DNA of 7,972 nucleotides from a virus (taxonomy: Duplodnaviria; Heunggongvirae; Uroviricota; Caudoviricetes), in IMG/VR virus record IMGVR_UViG_2681813263_000012; one strand, written 5' to 3'. Under the pieces are notes generated by a model. The model did not search any database. It had not been told where the DNA came from and saw only the letters and a list, made by a program, of their open reading frames with translations. Numbering within the stretch: the stretch's first letter is position 1; each line of letters begins with the position of its first letter. Position numbers and translations under genes: made by a program. Shown here piece by piece: positions 2,817-7,972 of the stretch.

Positions 2817-2912
2817 TCATTCGTTCACCCCTTAGTTTATTTGTTATTTCAATTTATAGAAGCACACTCAGCAATCAGAGGTGAAGAGTCTGACTGAACA
2901 AGAACCTGCCAA

Positions 2913-3578
2913 NNNNNNNNNNNNNNNNNNNNNNNNNNNNNNNNNNNNNNNNNNNNNNNNNNNNNNNNNNNNNNNNNNNNNNNNNNNNNNNNNNNNNNNN
3001 NNNNNNNNNNNNNNNNNNNNNNNNNNNNNNNNNNNNNNNNNNNNNNNNNNNNNNNNNNNNNNNNNNNNNNNNNNNNNNNNNNNNNNNNNNNNNNNNNNNN
3101 NNNNNNNNNNNNNNNNNNNNNNNNNNNNNNNNNNNNNNNNNNNNNNNNNNNNNNNNNNNNNNNNNNNNNNNNNNNNNNNNNNNNNNNNNNNNNNNNNNNN
3201 NNNNNNNNNNNNNNNNNNNNNNNNNNNNNNNNNNNNNNNNNNNNNNNNNNNNNNNNNNNNNNNNNNNNNNNNNNNNNNNNNNNNNNNNNNNNNNNNNNNN
3301 NNNNNNNNNNNNNNNNNNNNNNNNNNNNNNNNNNNNNNNNNNNNNNNNNNNNNNNNNNNNNNNNNNNNNNNNNNNNNNNNNNNNNNNNNNNNNNNNNNNN
3401 NNNNNNNNNNNNNNNNNNNNNNNNNNNNNNNNNNNNNNNNNNNNNNNNNNNNNNNNNNNNNNNNNNNNNNNNNNNNNNNNNNNNNNNNNNNNNNNNNNNN
3501 NNNNNNNNNNNNNNNNNNNNNNNNNNNNNNNNNNNNNNNNNNNNNNNNNNNNNNNNNNNNNNNNNNNNNNNNNNNNNN
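2913..3578. other. N-masked gap (666 nt)
   Basis: Run of n immediately downstream (minus sense) of paralog B. It hides the paralog B 3' end and whatever follows. Confidence 1.
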
Positions 3579-3873
3579 GAATATTATCGCTATACAAAAT
3601 TGCTATAGCCGCCTTGAGATATTTTTCAGGGCTAACGCTGTATTTGTTCGTTTCTTCGATAATAAGACGCTTCATGTTTGAGTCGGTAACAGGAAACATA
3701 AAACGCGGTTCACCAGTTTCAATTTCCTGAATAAAGTCTTCAATTTCTTCTGAGTTTTCAGCCATTAGCTTTAGTAATTTATCAAGGTCAATTGATACAC
3801 CGGAATCAGCGAAAGCCTGCACCATCATAGCAGTGTCGCTATCAATGAAAATCTGTAATTCATATTCGTTCAT
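3579..3873 (-). CDS. Small hypothetical protein, paralog B of the 4515-4838 gene; first 98 aa visible, 3' end in N-run
   Basis: ATG at 3873-3871 with AGGAG 8-9 nt upstream (aaaaggagattttaaaaATG). The protein MNEYELQIFIDSDTAMMVQAFADSG...AILYSDNI aligns along its whole length with the 4515-4838 product. The ORF-track TTG start at 3906 is unlikely. Confidence 0.7.
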
Positions 3874-4211
3874 TTTTAAAATCTCCTTTTTACCAGACCT
3901 CCTCAATCGCTCTGTAACGAGCTAAACAGTCTTTTTCAGGGGTAGCCTGTACAGTGGTATTACCCACCCTAAAATAAGATAGTTTTTTGCGTTAGAATGC
4001 GATTGAGAGCGTCTGATAAGCTGTTTTTCTAATTTCTCTTAAAGTCTCGGACTACCAATAACCTAATTCCGCTTTATTTCGTTCAAACCATTCCGCTGTA
4101 ACTGCTGTCTTTAGTGTTGCGTTTGGGCTGGTGGCATGAATGAAGATATCTTTTGGATTGCAAGCATCACCGAAACCACCTTCTTTGATGAGCAGGTCTG
4201 ATACATGCTTA

Positions 4212-4222
4212 NNNNNNNNNNN
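4212..4222. other. N-masked gap (11 nt, not a multiple of 3)
   Basis: Run of n. The reading frame across it cannot be trusted. Confidence 1.
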
Positions 4223-4384
4223 GCAAAGGATTCAATAATGAATGAACAAGAGTACTTTTTGAGATAGCCTCTCAGACTAACCTGAAAGGCCATGACGAAA
4301 AGCATTGCACCTTTCCAACTCAGAATATCCATCCATCGGATTATTGAAAGAAAAATAAGAGAGAATTGCTCTCCCATAATTAAA

Positions 4385-4413
4385 ATTATGCCATGCTTAA
4401 GGTTATTTGTCAA
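4385..4413 (-). promoter_or_regulatory. Candidate sigma70-type promoter (TTGACA-17 nt-CATAAT) reading leftward
   Basis: Minus-strand TTGACA at 4413-4408, a 17-nt spacer, then CATAAT at 4390-4385. A weak hairpin and U-tract follow at about 4377-4346 (gggagag-caatt-ctctctt then ttattttt). Confidence 0.35.
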
Positions 4414-4437
4414 CAGCTTTTTAACAGGTTGATAACA

Positions 4438-4515
4438 TCAATTCTTATTTACCGCATTGTTAATAATACAACCAACAAATAAGCCAAGCAACGTCCAAGC
4501 AATTATTAAACCCAT
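4438..4515 (-). CDS. Candidate 25-aa hydrophobic peptide (MGLIIAWTLLGLFVGCIINNAVNKN), translationally coupled to paralog A
   Basis: Its ATG at 4515-4513 overlaps the paralog A stop as TAATG. GAGGG lies about 9 nt upstream. A single predicted transmembrane-like helix, then TGA at 4440-4438. Too short for the ORF track; found by manual translation. Confidence 0.3.
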   Translation of the reverse strand: MGLIIAWTLLGLFVGCIINNAVNKN

Positions 4516-4838
4516 TAGTGAACCCTCACAGAATCCGTCACCAGAATATTATCACTGTACAGGATTGTCACAGCACCTTTCAAAAATTGCTCTGGGGAAA
4601 TACTGTATATGTTCGTTTGCTCGATAACCAATCTTTTCATGTTGCTGTCTGTAATTGGTAGCATCATTCGAGGCTCGTTAAACTCCACCGACTGAATAAA
4701 GTCAGAGATGTTTTCTGCATTATCAGCCATCAGCTTTAGTAATTTATCAAAATTAATTGCGATACCTGCATCAATGAAGCTTTGCACCATCATAGCAGTG
4801 TCGTTATCAACCATAATTTGCATTGGGTAATTATTCAT
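4515..4838 (-). CDS. Small hypothetical protein (107 aa), paralog A
   Basis: ATG at 4838-4836 with AGGAG about 8 nt upstream (cataggagatttaaaaATG); stop TAA at 4515-4517. Product MNNYPMQIMVDNDTAMMVQSFIDAGIAINFDKLLKLMADN... The longer ORF-track start at 4961 lacks an RBS and lies in the leader. Confidence 0.75.
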   Translation of the reverse strand: MNNYPMQIMVDNDTAMMVQSFIDAGIAINFDKLLKLMADNAENISDFIQSVEFNEPRMMLPITDSNMKRLVIEQTNIYSISPEQFLKGAVTILYSDNILVTDSVRVH

Positions 4839-5005
4839 TTTTAAATCTCCTATGAAACACACCTCAGACCTCTTAAAATAGCCATTCTGAGGCCAGTAAC
4901 CATGCGGGTTACAGAGGGAGTTGCACTGGCTGGTAAGGTAATTTATCAAATTAAGGTGCAACTCTGCCTGTAAAGTGCATTCTACCGTTTCTTAGATGGT
5001 TATTT

Positions 5006-5425
5006 TTAATTGTCTTTATTAATCAATGATTTAACGTAGAAATACTGTCTCCGTGAAATACCATATTTTTCTGTAATGTATCGCTGAGATTGACCAGCAT
5101 TTATGGCCTGAGTGATATCATCACGGTTATAGCGGTTACCACGGGATTTATATTTGTCACCATCCACATCTTCTGAGGTATTGAAGTCTTCAATCAGCTT
5201 AATTGCATCGTGAAGGTCATCTTCTGAGGCATAATCGAAGGTATGGATAATCTCAAAATCACCAGTATCTGCTGGTGCATTCTTCCATCTGGAGAAGCGG
5301 GATTTTAATTGCTGGTGTGTGAAGGGTTCAGCATTACGAGTTAAATCTTTCCATGTTCCGTTATTCTCACGGACAAGGTGACCTCTATGGCGATAAAACG
5401 CATGATAATCAAATGTGCATAGCAT
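5006..5425 (-). CDS. DNA-binding protein with C-terminal Hin/resolvase-type HTH (139 aa)
   Basis: Start overlaps the upstream RHH gene stop (TAATG). The C-terminus ...ITQAINAGQSQRYITEKYGISRRQYFYV fits the helix-turn-helix pattern of resolvase/invertase C-terminal domains. The N-terminal domain is unrecognised. Confidence 0.7.
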   Translation of the reverse strand: MLCTFDYHAFYRHRGHLVRENNGTWKDLTRNAEPFTHQQLKSRFSRWKNAPADTGDFEIIHTFDYASEDDLHDAIKLIEDFNTSEDVDGDKYKSRGNRYNRDDITQAINAGQSQRYITEKYGISRRQYFYVKSLINKDN

Positions 5426-5715
5426 TAAACCCCCAGCTTATCCGCCAGTTGATGAACCTTGGCACTCAACACCTGAATCATTGAGCAACCTGCCACTGCG
5501 GACTGTGCTTTGAGTAGTTCCAGTTGGCCCGTTGTGATTCTGATGGCCTTAGAACCCTCTGCAACGCCCTTGATAGCGTCAAACGGTGTAAGGGCTGTGT
5601 GTTCCTTCAGAATCTCACCAACAAGTGCTGTGTGGCTCATGGCTGGGTATTTGTCTTTGATTGCTGCCAGTCTGGAATATGCCTCTGGCAAAAGGCGTGT
5701 AACTGTGTGTCTCAT
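5425..5715 (-). CDS. Ribbon-helix-helix (CopG/Arc-like) DNA-binding regulator, probably tandem RHH (96 aa)
   Basis: ATG at 5715-5713 with AAGGAA about 8 nt upstream. N-terminus MRHTVTRLLPEAYSRLAAIKDKYPAMSHTALVGEILKEH fits a beta-strand/helix/helix RHH fold pattern. A second similar unit (KAIRITTGQLELLKAQSAVAGCSMIQVLSAKVHQL) follows. Confidence 0.65.
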   Translation of the reverse strand: MRHTVTRLLPEAYSRLAAIKDKYPAMSHTALVGEILKEHTALTPFDAIKGVAEGSKAIRITTGQLELLKAQSAVAGCSMIQVLSAKVHQLADKLGV

Positions 5716-5853
5716 TAAATTTTCCTTCTTAAAATCTTTGACTTATAACTAACTTTAACATATTTATAACATATTGTCAACAACTCATTTACATGTTAAT
5801 ATGGTTGTAGGGGGCTGATACAGGTCATTCCCTTTGATAAATAAGGGGAATTA
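5716..5853. promoter_or_regulatory. Divergent AT-rich intergenic region with promoter-like hexamers and a 9-bp direct repeat (candidate operator)
   Basis: TAACATATT at 5756-5764 and again at 5767-5775, spaced 11 bp. TTGTCAA at 5774-5780 reads as TTGACA on the minus strand and TTGTCA on the plus strand. TTGACT at 5738-5743. Plus-strand TTGTCA-17-TAATAT at 5774-5802. Confidence 0.4.
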
Positions 5854-6039
5854 ATGGGCTTTCTTGAAACAATTGCTGAATCTCACAGATTCGCAAGCTT
5901 AGGTTGCTTTGTGTTTCTGGTGCTTCTTGTGTATCAGCTTTTAAAAATGATTATCGCCAAAAGTACACGATTCAATTTCAGCATTAAGCTTTTCAAATAT
6001 GAAATCACAATTACGATTGATGATGGTAAAACAAACTAA
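5854..6039 (+). CDS. Candidate small membrane protein (61 aa, one hydrophobic helix)
   Basis: The only plus-strand ORF with a good RBS (AAGGGG 5 nt before ATG at 5854). Hydrophobic stretch LGCFVFLVLLVYQLL. Its stop overlaps the stop of the convergent minus-strand gene, so it could be antisense noise. Confidence 0.4.
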   Translation: MGFLETIAESHRFASLGCFVFLVLLVYQLLKMIIAKSTRFNFSIKLFKYEITITIDDGKTN

Positions 6040-6326
6040 CGTTTTGTGATAATATTGGTGGCCTTTAAGTTGCTGGGGTCACCGTCTTTTAATCGTAGCT
6101 GGTGGATTGAATTCCAGATATCAAAATGATACAGCACTGCAAACCTCAAAGCGTCAATCTTTAAATCTGTCACACCATCGTAAAAGAAATAACCCCTCCC
6201 TTCTTTCTTTGGTCTAATCCGGTAAACTTCCCCGTGAGTATCCTTCATAAGATGACCTTCACGAGAAATGCTGTAACGCTTTAACAGGTAATCTTTGTAT
6301 CTCTTTTCACCGTGATATTCTTTCAT
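6036..6326 (-). CDS. Hypothetical protein (96 aa), possibly nuclease-like
   Basis: ATG at 6326-6324 overlaps the upstream stop (TAATG), with GGAGG about 9 nt upstream. C-terminal ...HFDIWNSIHQLRLKDGDPSNLKATNI only loosely resembles HNH-type motifs; this is not a confident assignment. Confidence 0.6.
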   Translation of the reverse strand: MKEYHGEKRYKDYLLKRYSISREGHLMKDTHGEVYRIRPKKEGRGYFFYDGVTDLKIDALRFAVLYHFDIWNSIHQLRLKDGDPSNLKATNIITKR

Positions 6327-6808
6327 TACTTAATTCCTCCACCGGCAAAATACATCTTCGGTTTAATTTTTTGCTTCTTGTCATCCTGAGTTTGTTTCTT
6401 TTTCGGTGAAAGATAATAATCATCTTCACTGTCATCGAATGGGTCTAAACCCGATACTTTGTTCTTTTGTCTTGCAAGCTCGAATCTCTTTTTCTTCTCT
6501 GCCCTCTTAATGGCTTTTTCACGTTCATCCTCTTCATCATCGAAGGGGTCCAACTCATCATCAGTGGCGGGGCACTGTGTGTTTTTATGGTCACTATCAA
6601 CACTCACATCAGTGATTTCTCTGTCTTGTTTAGAAGTCTTTTTAGAGCTTACTTCAAGGTCAGATTCATTCATAGAGAGAAAATCATTTAATTCATCCAA
6701 AGAAAGAAAGTCATCTTCTTTAATATCATCATTAAGTCCAGTCTCTTTATTCTTATCTGTAATATTATTATCTAATGTTTTATCTAATAACTTATCTAAC
6801 TCTAACAC
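6326..6808 (-). CDS. Highly acidic, low-complexity protein (160 aa) with repeated LDPFDD(E/S)EDD motif and a basic C-terminal tail
   Basis: Probable GTG start at 6808-6806 with AGAGG about 8 nt upstream and an in-frame stop just before it. The first internal ATG lacks an RBS. D/E-rich with two LDPFDD copies. The 5' coding region coincides with the AT-rich origin-like repeats. Confidence 0.55.
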   Translation of the reverse strand: MLELDKLLDKTLDNNITDKNKETGLNDDIKEDDFLSLDELNDFLSMNESDLEVSSKKTSKQDREITDVSVDSDHKNTQCPATDDELDPFDDEEDEREKAIKRAEKKKRFELARQKNKVSGLDPFDDSEDDYYLSPKKKQTQDDKKQKIKPKMYFAGGGIK

Positions 6809-6886
6809 GGGTGACCTCTAACACGGGTGACATTTTGTCACTACCCCCATGACATTTTGTCACTGGTAGTGGTGTCATTTTGTCTT
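6753..6886. repeat. Origin-like repeat block: AT-rich TTATCTAA 12-mers, a 16-bp tandem repeat x2, and three iteron-like repeats at 22-bp phasing
   Basis: TTATCTAA at 6768, 6780 and 6792 (12-bp spacing), plus ttatctgt at 6753. ctctaacacgggtgac at 6800-6815 and 6816-6831, perfect tandem. gtgacattttgtcact at 6827-6842, atgacattttgtcact at 6849-6864, and degenerate ggtgtcattttgtctt at 6871-6886. All checked base by base. Confidence 0.6.
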
Positions 6887-7230
6887 ACTGAGGCTGCAAC
6901 TTCCTGTGATGTAGGTCTTACAAGTAATTCCGGCTTATCATCCAGTGTGAATACACGATAAGTGCTTTGACGCCCCTGATTCTTTTGCACCTGAATTAAA
7001 CCGTGTTTCTCAAGTGTCTCAATGGCTCTGATTGCTGTTCTCTTTGATACACCAGCCATATAAGCGAGATGGTCAATACTTGGTGAATATGATTTGTATT
7101 TCTCTTCATAGAAGTCACAGCTATGGACCATGACCATATAAATCAATCTTGCTGCTGCGTTAATTTCTTCTGAAAGTTGAGAGATTCGCACATCAAATTT
7201 ATAAAACTGATTTGGGTTATATTTAGACAT
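6841..7230 (-). CDS. Replication initiator-like protein, lambda-O N-terminal-type winged HTH (129 aa)
   Basis: ATG at 7230-7228 with GAGGT about 9 nt upstream; stop TAG at 6841-6843. Segment ...SIDHLAYMAGVSKRTAIRAIETLEKHGLIQVQ... matches the HTH pattern I recall for phage O-type and plasmid replication-initiator N-terminal domains. The gene's 3' end overlaps the iterons. Confidence 0.65.
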   Translation of the reverse strand: MSKYNPNQFYKFDVRISQLSEEINAAARLIYMVMVHSCDFYEEKYKSYSPSIDHLAYMAGVSKRTAIRAIETLEKHGLIQVQKNQGRQSTYRVFTLDDKPELLVRPTSQEVAASVRQNDTTTSDKMSWG

Positions 7231-7460
7231 TCATAAATTACCTCATACGTGAAAAGGCCAACCGGATAAAACCGATTAGCCTGTGTGATTAAAATATCTG
7301 GGGGATTGATGGACTGATAAAGAAGTCCATGCCTGAAACAGTACGATGATTAAAACGCTGAGGTATACCCTGAATGAGAGGTTAATATACGCCAACCATC
7401 TGACACCTCCCCAAGTGTTACCACTTCAAGACATGAACTTTTTTATCAGCCCATATAGAA

Positions 7461-7489
7461 ACTATAACAGATGTGATTATAAATTGCAA
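7461..7489 (-). promoter_or_regulatory. Candidate sigma70-type promoter (TTGCAA-17 nt-TATAGT) for the replication operon
   Basis: Minus-strand TTGCAA at 7489-7484, a 17-nt spacer, then TATAGT at 7466-7461. It lies in the 363-bp non-coding gap upstream of the initiator gene. Confidence 0.3.
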
Positions 7490-7593
7490 CAATTATTTCA
7501 CAGAATGATTACTGATTGGTCATTTATTGTTCACGGGGATACTTCTTAACATCTGAATCACCTGTCTTGTAAATGACCATATTTATGAGAATT

Positions 7594-7972
7594 TTAGCTC
7601 AACCTTTGAGCAATCCTGTATGACGTGCTCAGAGGCATTCTGAGAGCATCTGCAATGTACTTAATGGGTTTTCCTTGCCTGTATAGTTTTATGAAGCTGT
7701 CGAGCGTCTCAGGTGGGTAAATGGTGGGTCTTCCTCTTAGTCCACCACGGTTAATGATGGTTAACGGTAGCAATGTATCAGCACAGCAAACCATCTGTGT
7801 AATTTCATGCTTACGTGGTTCTTTTTTAAAAACAACGACTGCACTTGGAAACGGTGACCTAATAGTAAGCCTGTTATGCCCTGCTGGTGGAAGGTATTTA
7901 ACTGCACGATGAAGAATACGGATTTCATGACAGTGGTTATTGCTGTAAATGTGCCTAAGCCAGTAGCTGGTG
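7594..7972 (-). CDS. DNA-binding protein with C-terminal Hin/resolvase-type HTH; 5' end beyond window
   Basis: Manual translation shows the frame of ORF 7594-7794 stays open up to the window edge (...TSYWLRHIYSNNHCHEIRILHRAVKYLPPAGHNRLTIRSPFPSAVVVFKKEPRKHEITQMVCC...). C-terminus GRPTIYPPETLDSFIKLYRQGKPIKYIADALRMPLSTSYRIAQ fits the resolvase-type HTH pattern. No serine-recombinase catalytic motifs in the visible part. Confidence 0.45.
   Translation of the reverse strand, partial: TSYWLRHIYSNNHCHEIRILHRAVKYLPPAGHNRLTIRSPFPSAVVVFKKEPRKHEITQMVCCADTLLPLTIINRGGLRGRPTIYPPETLDSFIKLYRQGKPIKYIADALRMPLSTSYRIAQRLS

Follow-up and report, generated by a model that had tools for sequence, protein, structure and literature searches.

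A probable replication origin inside its own initiator gene, inactivated by frameshifts in an integrated Escherichia/Shigella island

Introduction

Several replication initiators bind sites that lie within their own coding sequence. The iterons of ori-lambda are located inside gene O and are followed by an AT-rich tract (PMC3349717, PMC7466680), and two iterons together with this tract suffice for unwinding in vitro (PMC7466680). The Rep protein of plasmid pSK41, 319 residues in length, has its four binding sites, the Rep boxes, in the middle of the gene that encodes it; its central domain, encoded by the origin, is a dispensable linker, and its C-terminal domain, which binds DnaG, is essential and forms the conserved, host-specific part of the protein (PMC5703833). 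Here we examine a repeat block at positions 6730–6886 of the IMG/VR virus record IMGVR_UViG_2681813263_000012, a stretch of 7,972 nucleotides (nt) referred to below as the window, together with the initiator gene that the block overlaps. We find it probable that the block is the replication origin of a ~10–11 kb integrated Escherichia/Shigella island, that it lies inside the island's own initiator gene and that it has been inactivated in the window.

Further described systems bear on this comparison. The iterons of RepA_N initiators are inverted repeats converging on a poly-A tract (PMC7145576). In the chimeric Rep of pPR9, a PF13730 N-terminal domain has been exchanged together with ori, and autonomous replication has been demonstrated experimentally (PMC5703833). 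RepA of the Vibrio cholerae PLE is the initiator of a Gram-negative chromosomal island that has a large serine recombinase but no helicase or primase of its own, and that depends on a helper phage (PMC7145576). An earlier note on this DNA, made from its letters alone, had described the block as a composite, lambda-like origin with three repeat classes, set between a short lambda-O-type initiator gene and an acidic gene. The features that looked unusual in that description are decay lesions: an initiator of 129 residues, a third class of repeats and a location where two genes meet.

Results

A repeat scan and TRF recovered the three repeat classes where the earlier note had placed them, including three 12-mers and one variant copy. 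The first class consists of iterons, each of which is a dyad with a GTGAC arm, a 5-base-pair (bp) A-tract and a GTCAC arm (GTGAC-AAAAT-GTCAC), a symmetry that the earlier note does not mention. On the minus strand, iteron 1 (AAGACAAAATGACAC, 6872–6886), located by the repeat scan and motif count, is the most degenerate copy; a surviving middle iteron (GTGACAAAATGTCAT, 6849–6863) adjoins a 23-bp unit lost from the window, the breakpoint being ambiguous because the units repeat; and iteron 4 (GTGACAAAATGTCAC, 6827–6841), a perfect dyad, adjoins the AT-rich tract in intact alleles. Three copies of the gacattttgtc-type repeat are thus present as claimed, but their start-to-start distances are 22 and 23 bp rather than a uniform 22 bp. 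With up to three mismatches allowed, the iteron 15-mer has five matches in the window against 0.28 expected, a number reached in 0/200 shuffles. The second class is a perfect 16-bp tandem duplication at 6800–6831 (CTCTAACACGGGTGAC x2, read on the minus strand as GTCACCCGTGTTAGAG x2; TRF score 64), which separates iteron 4 from the AT-rich tract and in which one iteron half-site is copied. The third belongs to the AT-rich tract (6730–6799), a putative DNA-unwinding element in which the 12-mer TTAGATAA occurs three times at 6768–6799, with a variant copy at 6753–6760. The 12-mers start at 6768, 6780 and 6792 on the minus strand, and the window holds no other; a count of three is unremarkable alone (0.51 expected, three reached in 2/200 shuffles), and it is their exact 12-bp tandem spacing that stands out. 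GC content over 6720–6809 is 0.217, the minimum within 6000–7972. The repeats overlap the 3′ end of the open reading frame (ORF) at 6841–7230(−), and the GTG start (6808) of the ORF at 6326–6808(−) falls within the block, both as the earlier note had reported. Single-strand folding of the block was unremarkable (z = −1.78), and neither Rfam at gathering thresholds nor a tRNA scan found anything in the window. A DnaA-box reading of TTATCTAA was rejected, since this word has three mismatches to TTATNCACA by eye.

The two ORFs are parts of a single ancestral gene, as their relatives make evident, and the block does not mark the junction of two genes. The 5′ part, ORF1 (6841–7230(−), 129 residues), encodes the winged-helix (HTH_36) domain and the start of an iteron-encoded linker, and ends at a premature TAG at 6843–6841 (codon 130). 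The 3′ part, ORF2 (6326–6808(−), 160 residues), is the acidic gene of the earlier note; read in a different frame from ORF1, it supplies the remainder of the linker and the acidic C-terminal domain. Residues 1–126 of ORF1 are identical to the intact 306-residue protein of the related locus L009. Homologues found by homology search, some of them partial proteins, run from ORF1 into ORF2 sequence (...SDKMTPLPVTKCHGGSDKMSPVLDKLLDKTLDNN...GGG), and E. coli 2011C-4315 and MARGA_3 have single intact genes of 921 bp and 969 bp at this place, annotated as 'helix-turn-helix domain-containing protein'. A search with the intact protein returned 2220 homologues, the best 120 of which are 301–323 residues long. 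In many E. coli the two ORFs form one gene with a product of 306–323 residues, in which four iterons and then the AT-rich tract occupy codons ~115–160. This arrangement of four iterons and an AT-rich tract in mid-gene is the lambda layout; three of the iterons survive in the window. When the window is translated in all three frames, the correct peptide passes from frame 0 to frame 2 at a deletion and then to frame 1 at the duplication. Because the two frameshifts add up, they do not cancel, and fusion of ORF1 and ORF2 by removal or addition of one 16-mer was ruled out, the ORF1 stop lying upstream of the duplication. The 'short initiator beside an acidic gene' is a pseudogene and not a new design.

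The first frameshift can be assigned to the iteron array itself. DNA alignment with the intact loci L009 and L010 revealed four iterons in the intact alleles and the absence of one 23-bp unit from the window. The intact 314-residue gene of E. coli UMNK88 (L024, WP_000049840) contains the exact precursor array, AGACAAAATGACACCAC / TACCAGTGACAAAATGACACCAC / TACCAGTGACAAAATGTCATGGGGG / TAGTGACAAAATGTCAC, and it is the middle 23 bp of the segment formed by AGACAAAATGACACCAC, TACCAGTGACAAAATGACACCAC and TACCAGTGACAAAATGTCATGGGGG that are missing from the window. Loss of this unit shifts the frame and results in a stop after 129 residues; the initiator is therefore not N-terminal-only by nature, as the earlier note had supposed. 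The 16-bp duplication constitutes the second frameshift and was found in none of the loci L001–L011 and in no fetched relative outside the window's own lineage. The exact 160-residue ORF2, which depends on the duplication, occurs on 12 contigs, compared with 2126 blocks of the assembly collection for the exact 129-residue ORF1, and the duplication is accordingly a lineage-specific feature rather than a third functional repeat class. The duplication junction (window 6806–6819) also creates AGAGG 6 nt upstream of GTG 6808, a Shine-Dalgarno-like context that the unduplicated sequence does not have; gene callers start ORF2 there because of this AGAGG, and the start is a predicted one.

The distribution of these lesions among related genomes was then compared. 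The window is identical to contig CXDG01000167.1 (GCA_001252135.1); over 4223–7972 its identity is 99.3–99.4% to a group of loci, among them those of Shigella sonnei 53G and related chromosomes. Sister Shigella genomes have other small indels at this spot (+T in L002 and L004, −2 in L005) and ORF2 lengths of 93–124 residues; such differing indels are the pattern that a pseudogene would leave as it gathers lesions after a first inactivating event. We regard the lost 23-bp unit and the 16-bp duplication as decay lesions of a Shigella-type lineage and not as design. Three iterons are likewise present in Escherichia sp. MOD1-EC7003 (L011), the single locus returned by a scan of genome contigs, and in L001, L007 and L008, which are E. 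coli islands inserted at a different chromosomal site. Over the first 345 nt these three-iteron backgrounds differ by 3–4 single-nucleotide polymorphisms (SNPs), iteron 4 is found in one orientation or the other among them, and the window is 1 SNP away from the four-iteron L010. The simplest reading is that slippage between the 23-bp direct repeats has taken place independently and repeatedly. Among complete E. coli genomes, 44 have one four-iteron junction type, a further set has the UMNK88 type, and ~5 have the exact three-iteron junction; the 50-mer that defines the latter is ambiguous, a TPLP-type four-iteron array holding the same 49-mer, and only the five full-length single-place matches were counted.

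These findings bear directly on the possibility that the window carries a working composite origin, with three functional repeat classes, a naturally short 129-residue initiator and a separate acidic protein that has its own start. Both ORFs are open and both are called by gene callers, and the AGAGG upstream of GTG 6808 could permit separate translation of the C-terminal half. This interpretation is nevertheless very unlikely, given that the split state derives from an intact single gene by two frameshifts, that the 16-bp repeat is confined to few contigs, that the indels and ORF2 lengths of the sister Shigella genomes conform to decay, and that in the comparable pSK41 Rep the C-terminal domain is essential for replication (PMC5703833).

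The recurrence of the three-iteron state permits another interpretation. The free 129-residue N-terminal domain may still bind iterons, and the truncated module might have been kept for a new role in which this domain, as a factor of incompatibility or exclusion, binds iterons and prevents related islands that enter the cell from replicating. ORF1 retains a complete winged-helix domain and has a promoter-like site upstream: a sigma-70-like match at 7461–7489(−), a consensus match only and the sole one in 6000–7972, lies ~230 bp upstream of the initiator start codon. The three-iteron, 129-residue state is present on at least three sequence backgrounds and at two integration sites. Plasmid-borne ori-lambda iterons have been proposed to be O-titrating competitors, although phage plating in the same study was not inhibited by an intact O/ori-lambda from which oop was missing (PMC3349717). 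However, recurrence is what slippage between 23-bp direct repeats is expected to produce, S. sonnei is clonal, so that conservation there says little, and the ~5 complete E. coli genomes with the exact three-iteron junction compare with 44 that have just one of the two four-iteron types. We consider a retained exclusion function quite unlikely.

Analysis of the intact gene indicates that the iterons are DNA sites rather than a by-product of coding. The four iterons begin in codon phases 2, 1, 0 and 1 and encode the peptides RQND, SDKMS, VTKCH and SDKMS. Since one DNA word yields three peptides, the iterons are repeats at the DNA level and not at the level of the peptide. Across 121 protein variants, a set biased towards similarity because it comprises the top-scoring 120 matches, the residues encoded by iteron cores are invariant, spacer residues 127–129 split ~2:1 and residue 136 splits ~1:1. 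Iteron 4 is found in both A-tract orientations, GTGACAAAATGTCAC or GTGACATTTTGTCAC, with identical arms, and DKMS then becomes DILS; both orientations occur in three-iteron and in four-iteron arrays (window 6827–6841 and its equivalents in L001 and L010). The idea that the repeats stem from a repetitive linker peptide and are kept by coding constraint alone draws on the 12-mers, all of which lie in one codon phase and encode LDKL/LDKT/LDNN. For the iterons it is already contradicted by their three codon phases and three peptides, by the inversion of iteron 4 with its arms preserved and by spacers that vary around cores that do not; moreover, the linker is predicted to be disordered. The earlier note had considered that the repeats might be conserved in homologues through their coding alone, which fails for the iterons both on codon phase and because other alleles have different iterons at the same site. 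Coding constraint as the whole explanation is thus extremely improbable, and the iterons look functional in the intact gene.

The most compelling evidence for DNA sites comes from at least three further initiator alleles, designated B (L013, L014), B′ (L017) and C (L015), whose N-terminal domains are ~36–44% identical overall to that of allele A and which share with it a conserved C-terminal region. Each of the three has its own 3–4 palindromic repeats at codons ~118–145, followed by an AT-rich tract. In allele B a 22-bp unit with a GAGTCAAAATTnTTTAC-like core is present four times at intervals of 22 bp, allele B′ contains GAGTCAAGAAAGTTTAC x4 at 22 bp, and allele C contains TAACCAGAAATTGGTTA x3 at 23 bp. 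The GC content of the 70 nt that follow the last iteron is 0.23–0.26 in each of the four alleles tested (0.26 in allele A), compared with a gene mean of 0.37–0.38. The N-terminal domain and the iterons thus co-vary as a cassette on a common C-terminus, as the allele sequences make plain, and this co-variation of DNA-binding domain and repeats matches the description of pPR9 versus pSK41 (PMC5703833). More distantly, a metagenomic phage with terminase and portal genes (L018) has ~6 GACAAAATGTCAC repeats after its HTH_36 domain (L018:6311–6445). Of 74 cluster representatives at ≤50% identity, 18 hold at least two of the peptides DKMS, TKCH and GQNV, 7–8 codons apart within residues ~90–176, a fraction that is inflated because the query itself held these peptides. 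The GACAAAATGTCAC iteron word was also observed embedded after the HTH_36 domain of many distant homologues (P0162–P0213).

To place the initiator among known families, its product was compared with profile and structure collections. The 129-residue ORF matches Pfam HTH_36 (PF13730) with 31.2 bits (1.9e-7) and the intact protein, P0029, with 29.3 bits, both above the cutoff of 25; alleles B and C score 16.9–18.4 bits and lie under it. PHROG families labelled 'replication initiation protein' and 'O-like' match the 129-residue ORF at 1e-11 to 1e-7, over the N-terminal ~100 of ~300 positions only. The assignment of the 6841–7230 product to an initiator, on which the earlier note depended, is borne out by these matches. 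Its attribution to the lambda O type is not: PF04492 (Phage_rep_O) gave no Pfam match at E ≤ 0.1 or E ≤ 0.01, and BLASTP of P0029 against lambda O gave E = 1.3. PF06970 (RepA_N) likewise gave no Pfam match, the only one in that direction being a weak match to DnaD_N (PF21984, E = 0.034). No Pfam or PHROG match was obtained for the 160-residue ORF at 6326–6808, a sequence search of the PDB returned chance-level matches only, and NCBIfam yielded nothing above cutoff.

For the intact protein, an AlphaFold2 model that used an alignment of 35 sequences predicts a winged helix at residues ~10–105 with pLDDT of 80–95, followed by a linker and an acidic region mostly below 50. When this model was compared with the PDB by Foldseek, 4RO3 ranked first (E = 1.9e-5, 18% identity over the aligned region), followed by 4PQL, 5KBJ, 4PT7 and 4PTA; regulators of the MarR and ArsR types come lower than these top five, which have E = 2e-5 to 1e-3 and target TM-scores of 0.55–0.70. 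Of these entries, 4RO3 holds the N-terminal domain of V. cholerae PLE RepA, and two others, 4PT7 and 4PTA, represent RepA_N initiators from staphylococci (PMC7145576). The entry 5KBJ is entitled 'Rep-DNA complex'. The modelled N-terminal fold therefore appears closest to RepA_N initiators such as PLE RepA and pSK41 Rep, while by sequence the protein does not belong to the lambda O family.

A helix-turn-helix (HTH) protein of this kind might alternatively be a transcription regulator, in which case the palindromic repeats would be operators forming an autoregulatory or roadblock array, and not an origin. The 129-residue ORF does have sub-threshold matches to the MarR, GntR and Crp HTH families, regulators of the MarR and ArsR types appear lower in the fold search, and no replication genes lie alongside. 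Yet the best sequence-profile and fold matches are initiators, and the layout is kept across four alleles. Four phased operators inside a regulator's own coding sequence, next to an AT-rich tract, would not be normal, and this arrangement is documented for lambda O and pSK41 Rep (PMC7466680, PMC5703833). We therefore judge a regulatory array unlikely. The locus is best explained as a previously uncharacterised member, with HTH_36 sequence and a RepA_N-like fold, of a known kind of system, the initiator-internal iteron origin.

Comparison with lambda O confirmed a strong likeness in layout. In the lambda record, gene O occupies 38686–39585 and its four iterons lie at 39034–39118, corresponding to nt 349–433 of O, with spacings of 20, 24 and 23 bp. 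The intact gene described here also has four A-centred dyad iterons, at nt 345–427 (codons 115–143 of 306), and hence at nearly the same position in the gene; their spacing is 22–23 bp compared with 20–24 bp in lambda. In both genes transcription passes the iterons before it reaches the AT-rich tract on their 3′ side, and both proteins comprise an N-terminal DNA-binding domain, a linker and a C-terminal domain. The earlier note's comparison of iterons and AT-rich tract inside initiator coding sequence with the lambda ori is upheld on these positions. The two differ in that there is no detectable sequence similarity, in that no P-like helicase-loader gene lies downstream here, the next genes being ORFans of 96–139 residues without Pfam, PHROG or PADLOC matches, and in that the C-terminal region here is acidic and, in the model, mostly disordered.

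The likeness to RepA_N initiators (pSK41 Rep, pTZ2162 RepA) resides in the fold matches to 4PQL, 4PT7, 4PTA and 5KBJ, next after PLE RepA, and in the semi-palindromic A-tract iterons in mid-rep, here four copies of the GTGAC-AAAAT-GTCAC dyad (PMC7145576, PMC5703833). The differences are the missing PF06970 match, a Gram-negative host and a chromosomal rather than plasmid setting; for pSK41 the C-terminal partner is DnaG primase. With pPR9 the locus shares an N-terminal domain of the HTH_36 family and the swapping of this domain and ori as a cassette, as in alleles A, B and C; pPR9 is a staphylococcal plasmid, and the likeness is by description and not by direct sequence comparison. V. cholerae PLE RepA is the top structural match, and PLE, like the island described here, has a large serine recombinase and no helicase or primase of its own. 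In contrast, the PLE ori is non-coding and lies outside repA, whereas the ori here is inside the initiator gene, and helper dependence is suggested here only by analogy.

The island from which the window derives is ~10–11 kb in length and is inserted in yecE, between yecN/cmoA and a large serine recombinase; an intact copy spans L009:672–12105, and the window is its inner part. The same gene set occurs beside wrbA (L015:7432–17931) and between msyB and lpxL (L001:8083–15591), giving three chromosomal sites. It consists of a small serine invertase, a Dam-like methylase, the initiator with its ori, ~8 ORFans, a 722-residue tape-measure protein, a Dit-like protein and the large serine recombinase. 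No capsid, terminase, portal, tail-tube, lysis or helicase genes were found in the island gene sets. Tape-measure proteins of FelixO1-like and Mooglevirus myophages share ~30% identity with that of the island. PADLOC detected no defence system among the island proteins; the Dam-like gene matched an orphan methyltransferase model, and the initiator drew two weak CasR HTH matches (E ~1e-4). The literature search brought up no relevant paper on the yecE island or on a satellite that carries both a tape-measure gene and a large serine recombinase.

Several features of the surrounding DNA were observed in addition. The Dam-like N6-adenine methyltransferase gene has its 3′ end at 7594–7972(−) and runs off the end of the window; its product is 220 residues long in relatives, and its last ~45 residues match the resolvase-type HTH_7; for a methylase, a C-terminal HTH is unusual. 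GATC is absent from 6300–7600, and the neighbouring methylase thus has no GATC target in the origin. All called genes of the window are on the minus strand, except a 61-residue hydrophobic ORF at 5854–6039(+), which runs opposite to all other island genes and is called at the same place in most related loci. The ORFs at 2875–3906(−) and 4515–4961(−) are paralogous, with ~70% nucleotide identity over ~320 bp and a shared motif MMVQ.F.D.G..I..DKLLKLMA.N...I.DFIQ, and neither has a family match. An 11-bp tandem repeat, AACATATTGAC x2.4, lies in the intergenic region at 5757–5782, upstream of the 96-residue gene at 5425–5715. Runs of N at 985–2065, 2770–2816, 2913–3578 and 4212–4222 mask the tape-measure interior and other stretches, and the same Ns are present in the source-contig copy, L022.

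Discussion

We propose that the intact form of this locus would work as an initiator-internal origin. The protein consists of an N-terminal winged helix, a disordered linker and an acidic C-terminal region with DPFDD motifs and a GGG terminus, and the DNA encoding the linker carries the four iterons, followed by an AT-rich tract of ~70 bp. By analogy with the described systems, dimers of the winged helix may bind the dyad iterons, the 22–23-bp phasing and the A-tracts would favour a bent nucleoprotein complex, and the adjoining AT-rich tract would then melt. The C-terminal region may recruit the replication machinery of the host or of a helper phage, because the island itself encodes no helicase, primase or loader. 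In the Shigella-sonnei-type lineage, a deletion of 23 bp, probably through slippage between iteron units, removed one iteron, shifted the frame and placed a stop after 129 residues. A later 16-bp duplication, limited to a small sub-lineage, shifted the frame once more and moved iteron 4 further from the AT-rich tract by 16 bp, or ~1.5 helical turns. With no residues after 129, one iteron gone and 16 bp inserted, the module in the window is most likely dead in trans and impaired in cis.

A number of points weigh against this proposal. The three-iteron site could still work in cis with an intact initiator, given that two iterons allow unwinding in lambda (PMC7466680). For every allele of the island, the case for replication is drawn from sequence, a structural model and analogy. 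No domain is recognisable in the C-terminal region, most of which is disordered in the model, and the repetition of the 12-mers, with their single codon phase, could in part be that of a peptide. No helicase, primase or loader gene is present in the island. A tblastn search with the intact initiator found one weak match, in a Parageobacillus phage, among deposited phages and none in plasmids, and a scan of IMG/VR for the initiator found no relative, which would mean that an autonomously replicating form has never been sampled. Megablast of 5700–7972 against phages and plasmids likewise returned nothing.

A large serine recombinase in combination with an initiator that has a RepA_N-like fold but no helicase of its own recalls PLE (PMC7145576). 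It is possible, although we hold it to be rather doubtful, that the island belongs to an undescribed family of enterobacterial phage satellites with a PLE-like logic, in which the origin fires only with the replication functions of a helper phage and iteron slippage is a recurrent means of silencing, as for example in S. sonnei.

For annotation, our results imply that in S. sonnei-type genomes the 129-residue 'HTH protein' and the 'hypothetical protein' next to it should become a single entry, a frameshifted initiator pseudogene, and that the repeats should carry the label of a degraded origin. The locus offers a clean natural example of coding-embedded iterons that are kept at the DNA level, in three codon phases. 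It also illustrates the cost of this arrangement: with a 23-bp unit, any change in copy number removes a binding site and shifts the frame, so that the direct repeats make the initiator gene fragile. The intact alleles provide four ready-made pairs of N-terminal domain and iteron specificity on a shared C-terminus, usable for studies of initiator recognition, and the uncharacterised island family that carries them may merit testing for satellite behaviour.

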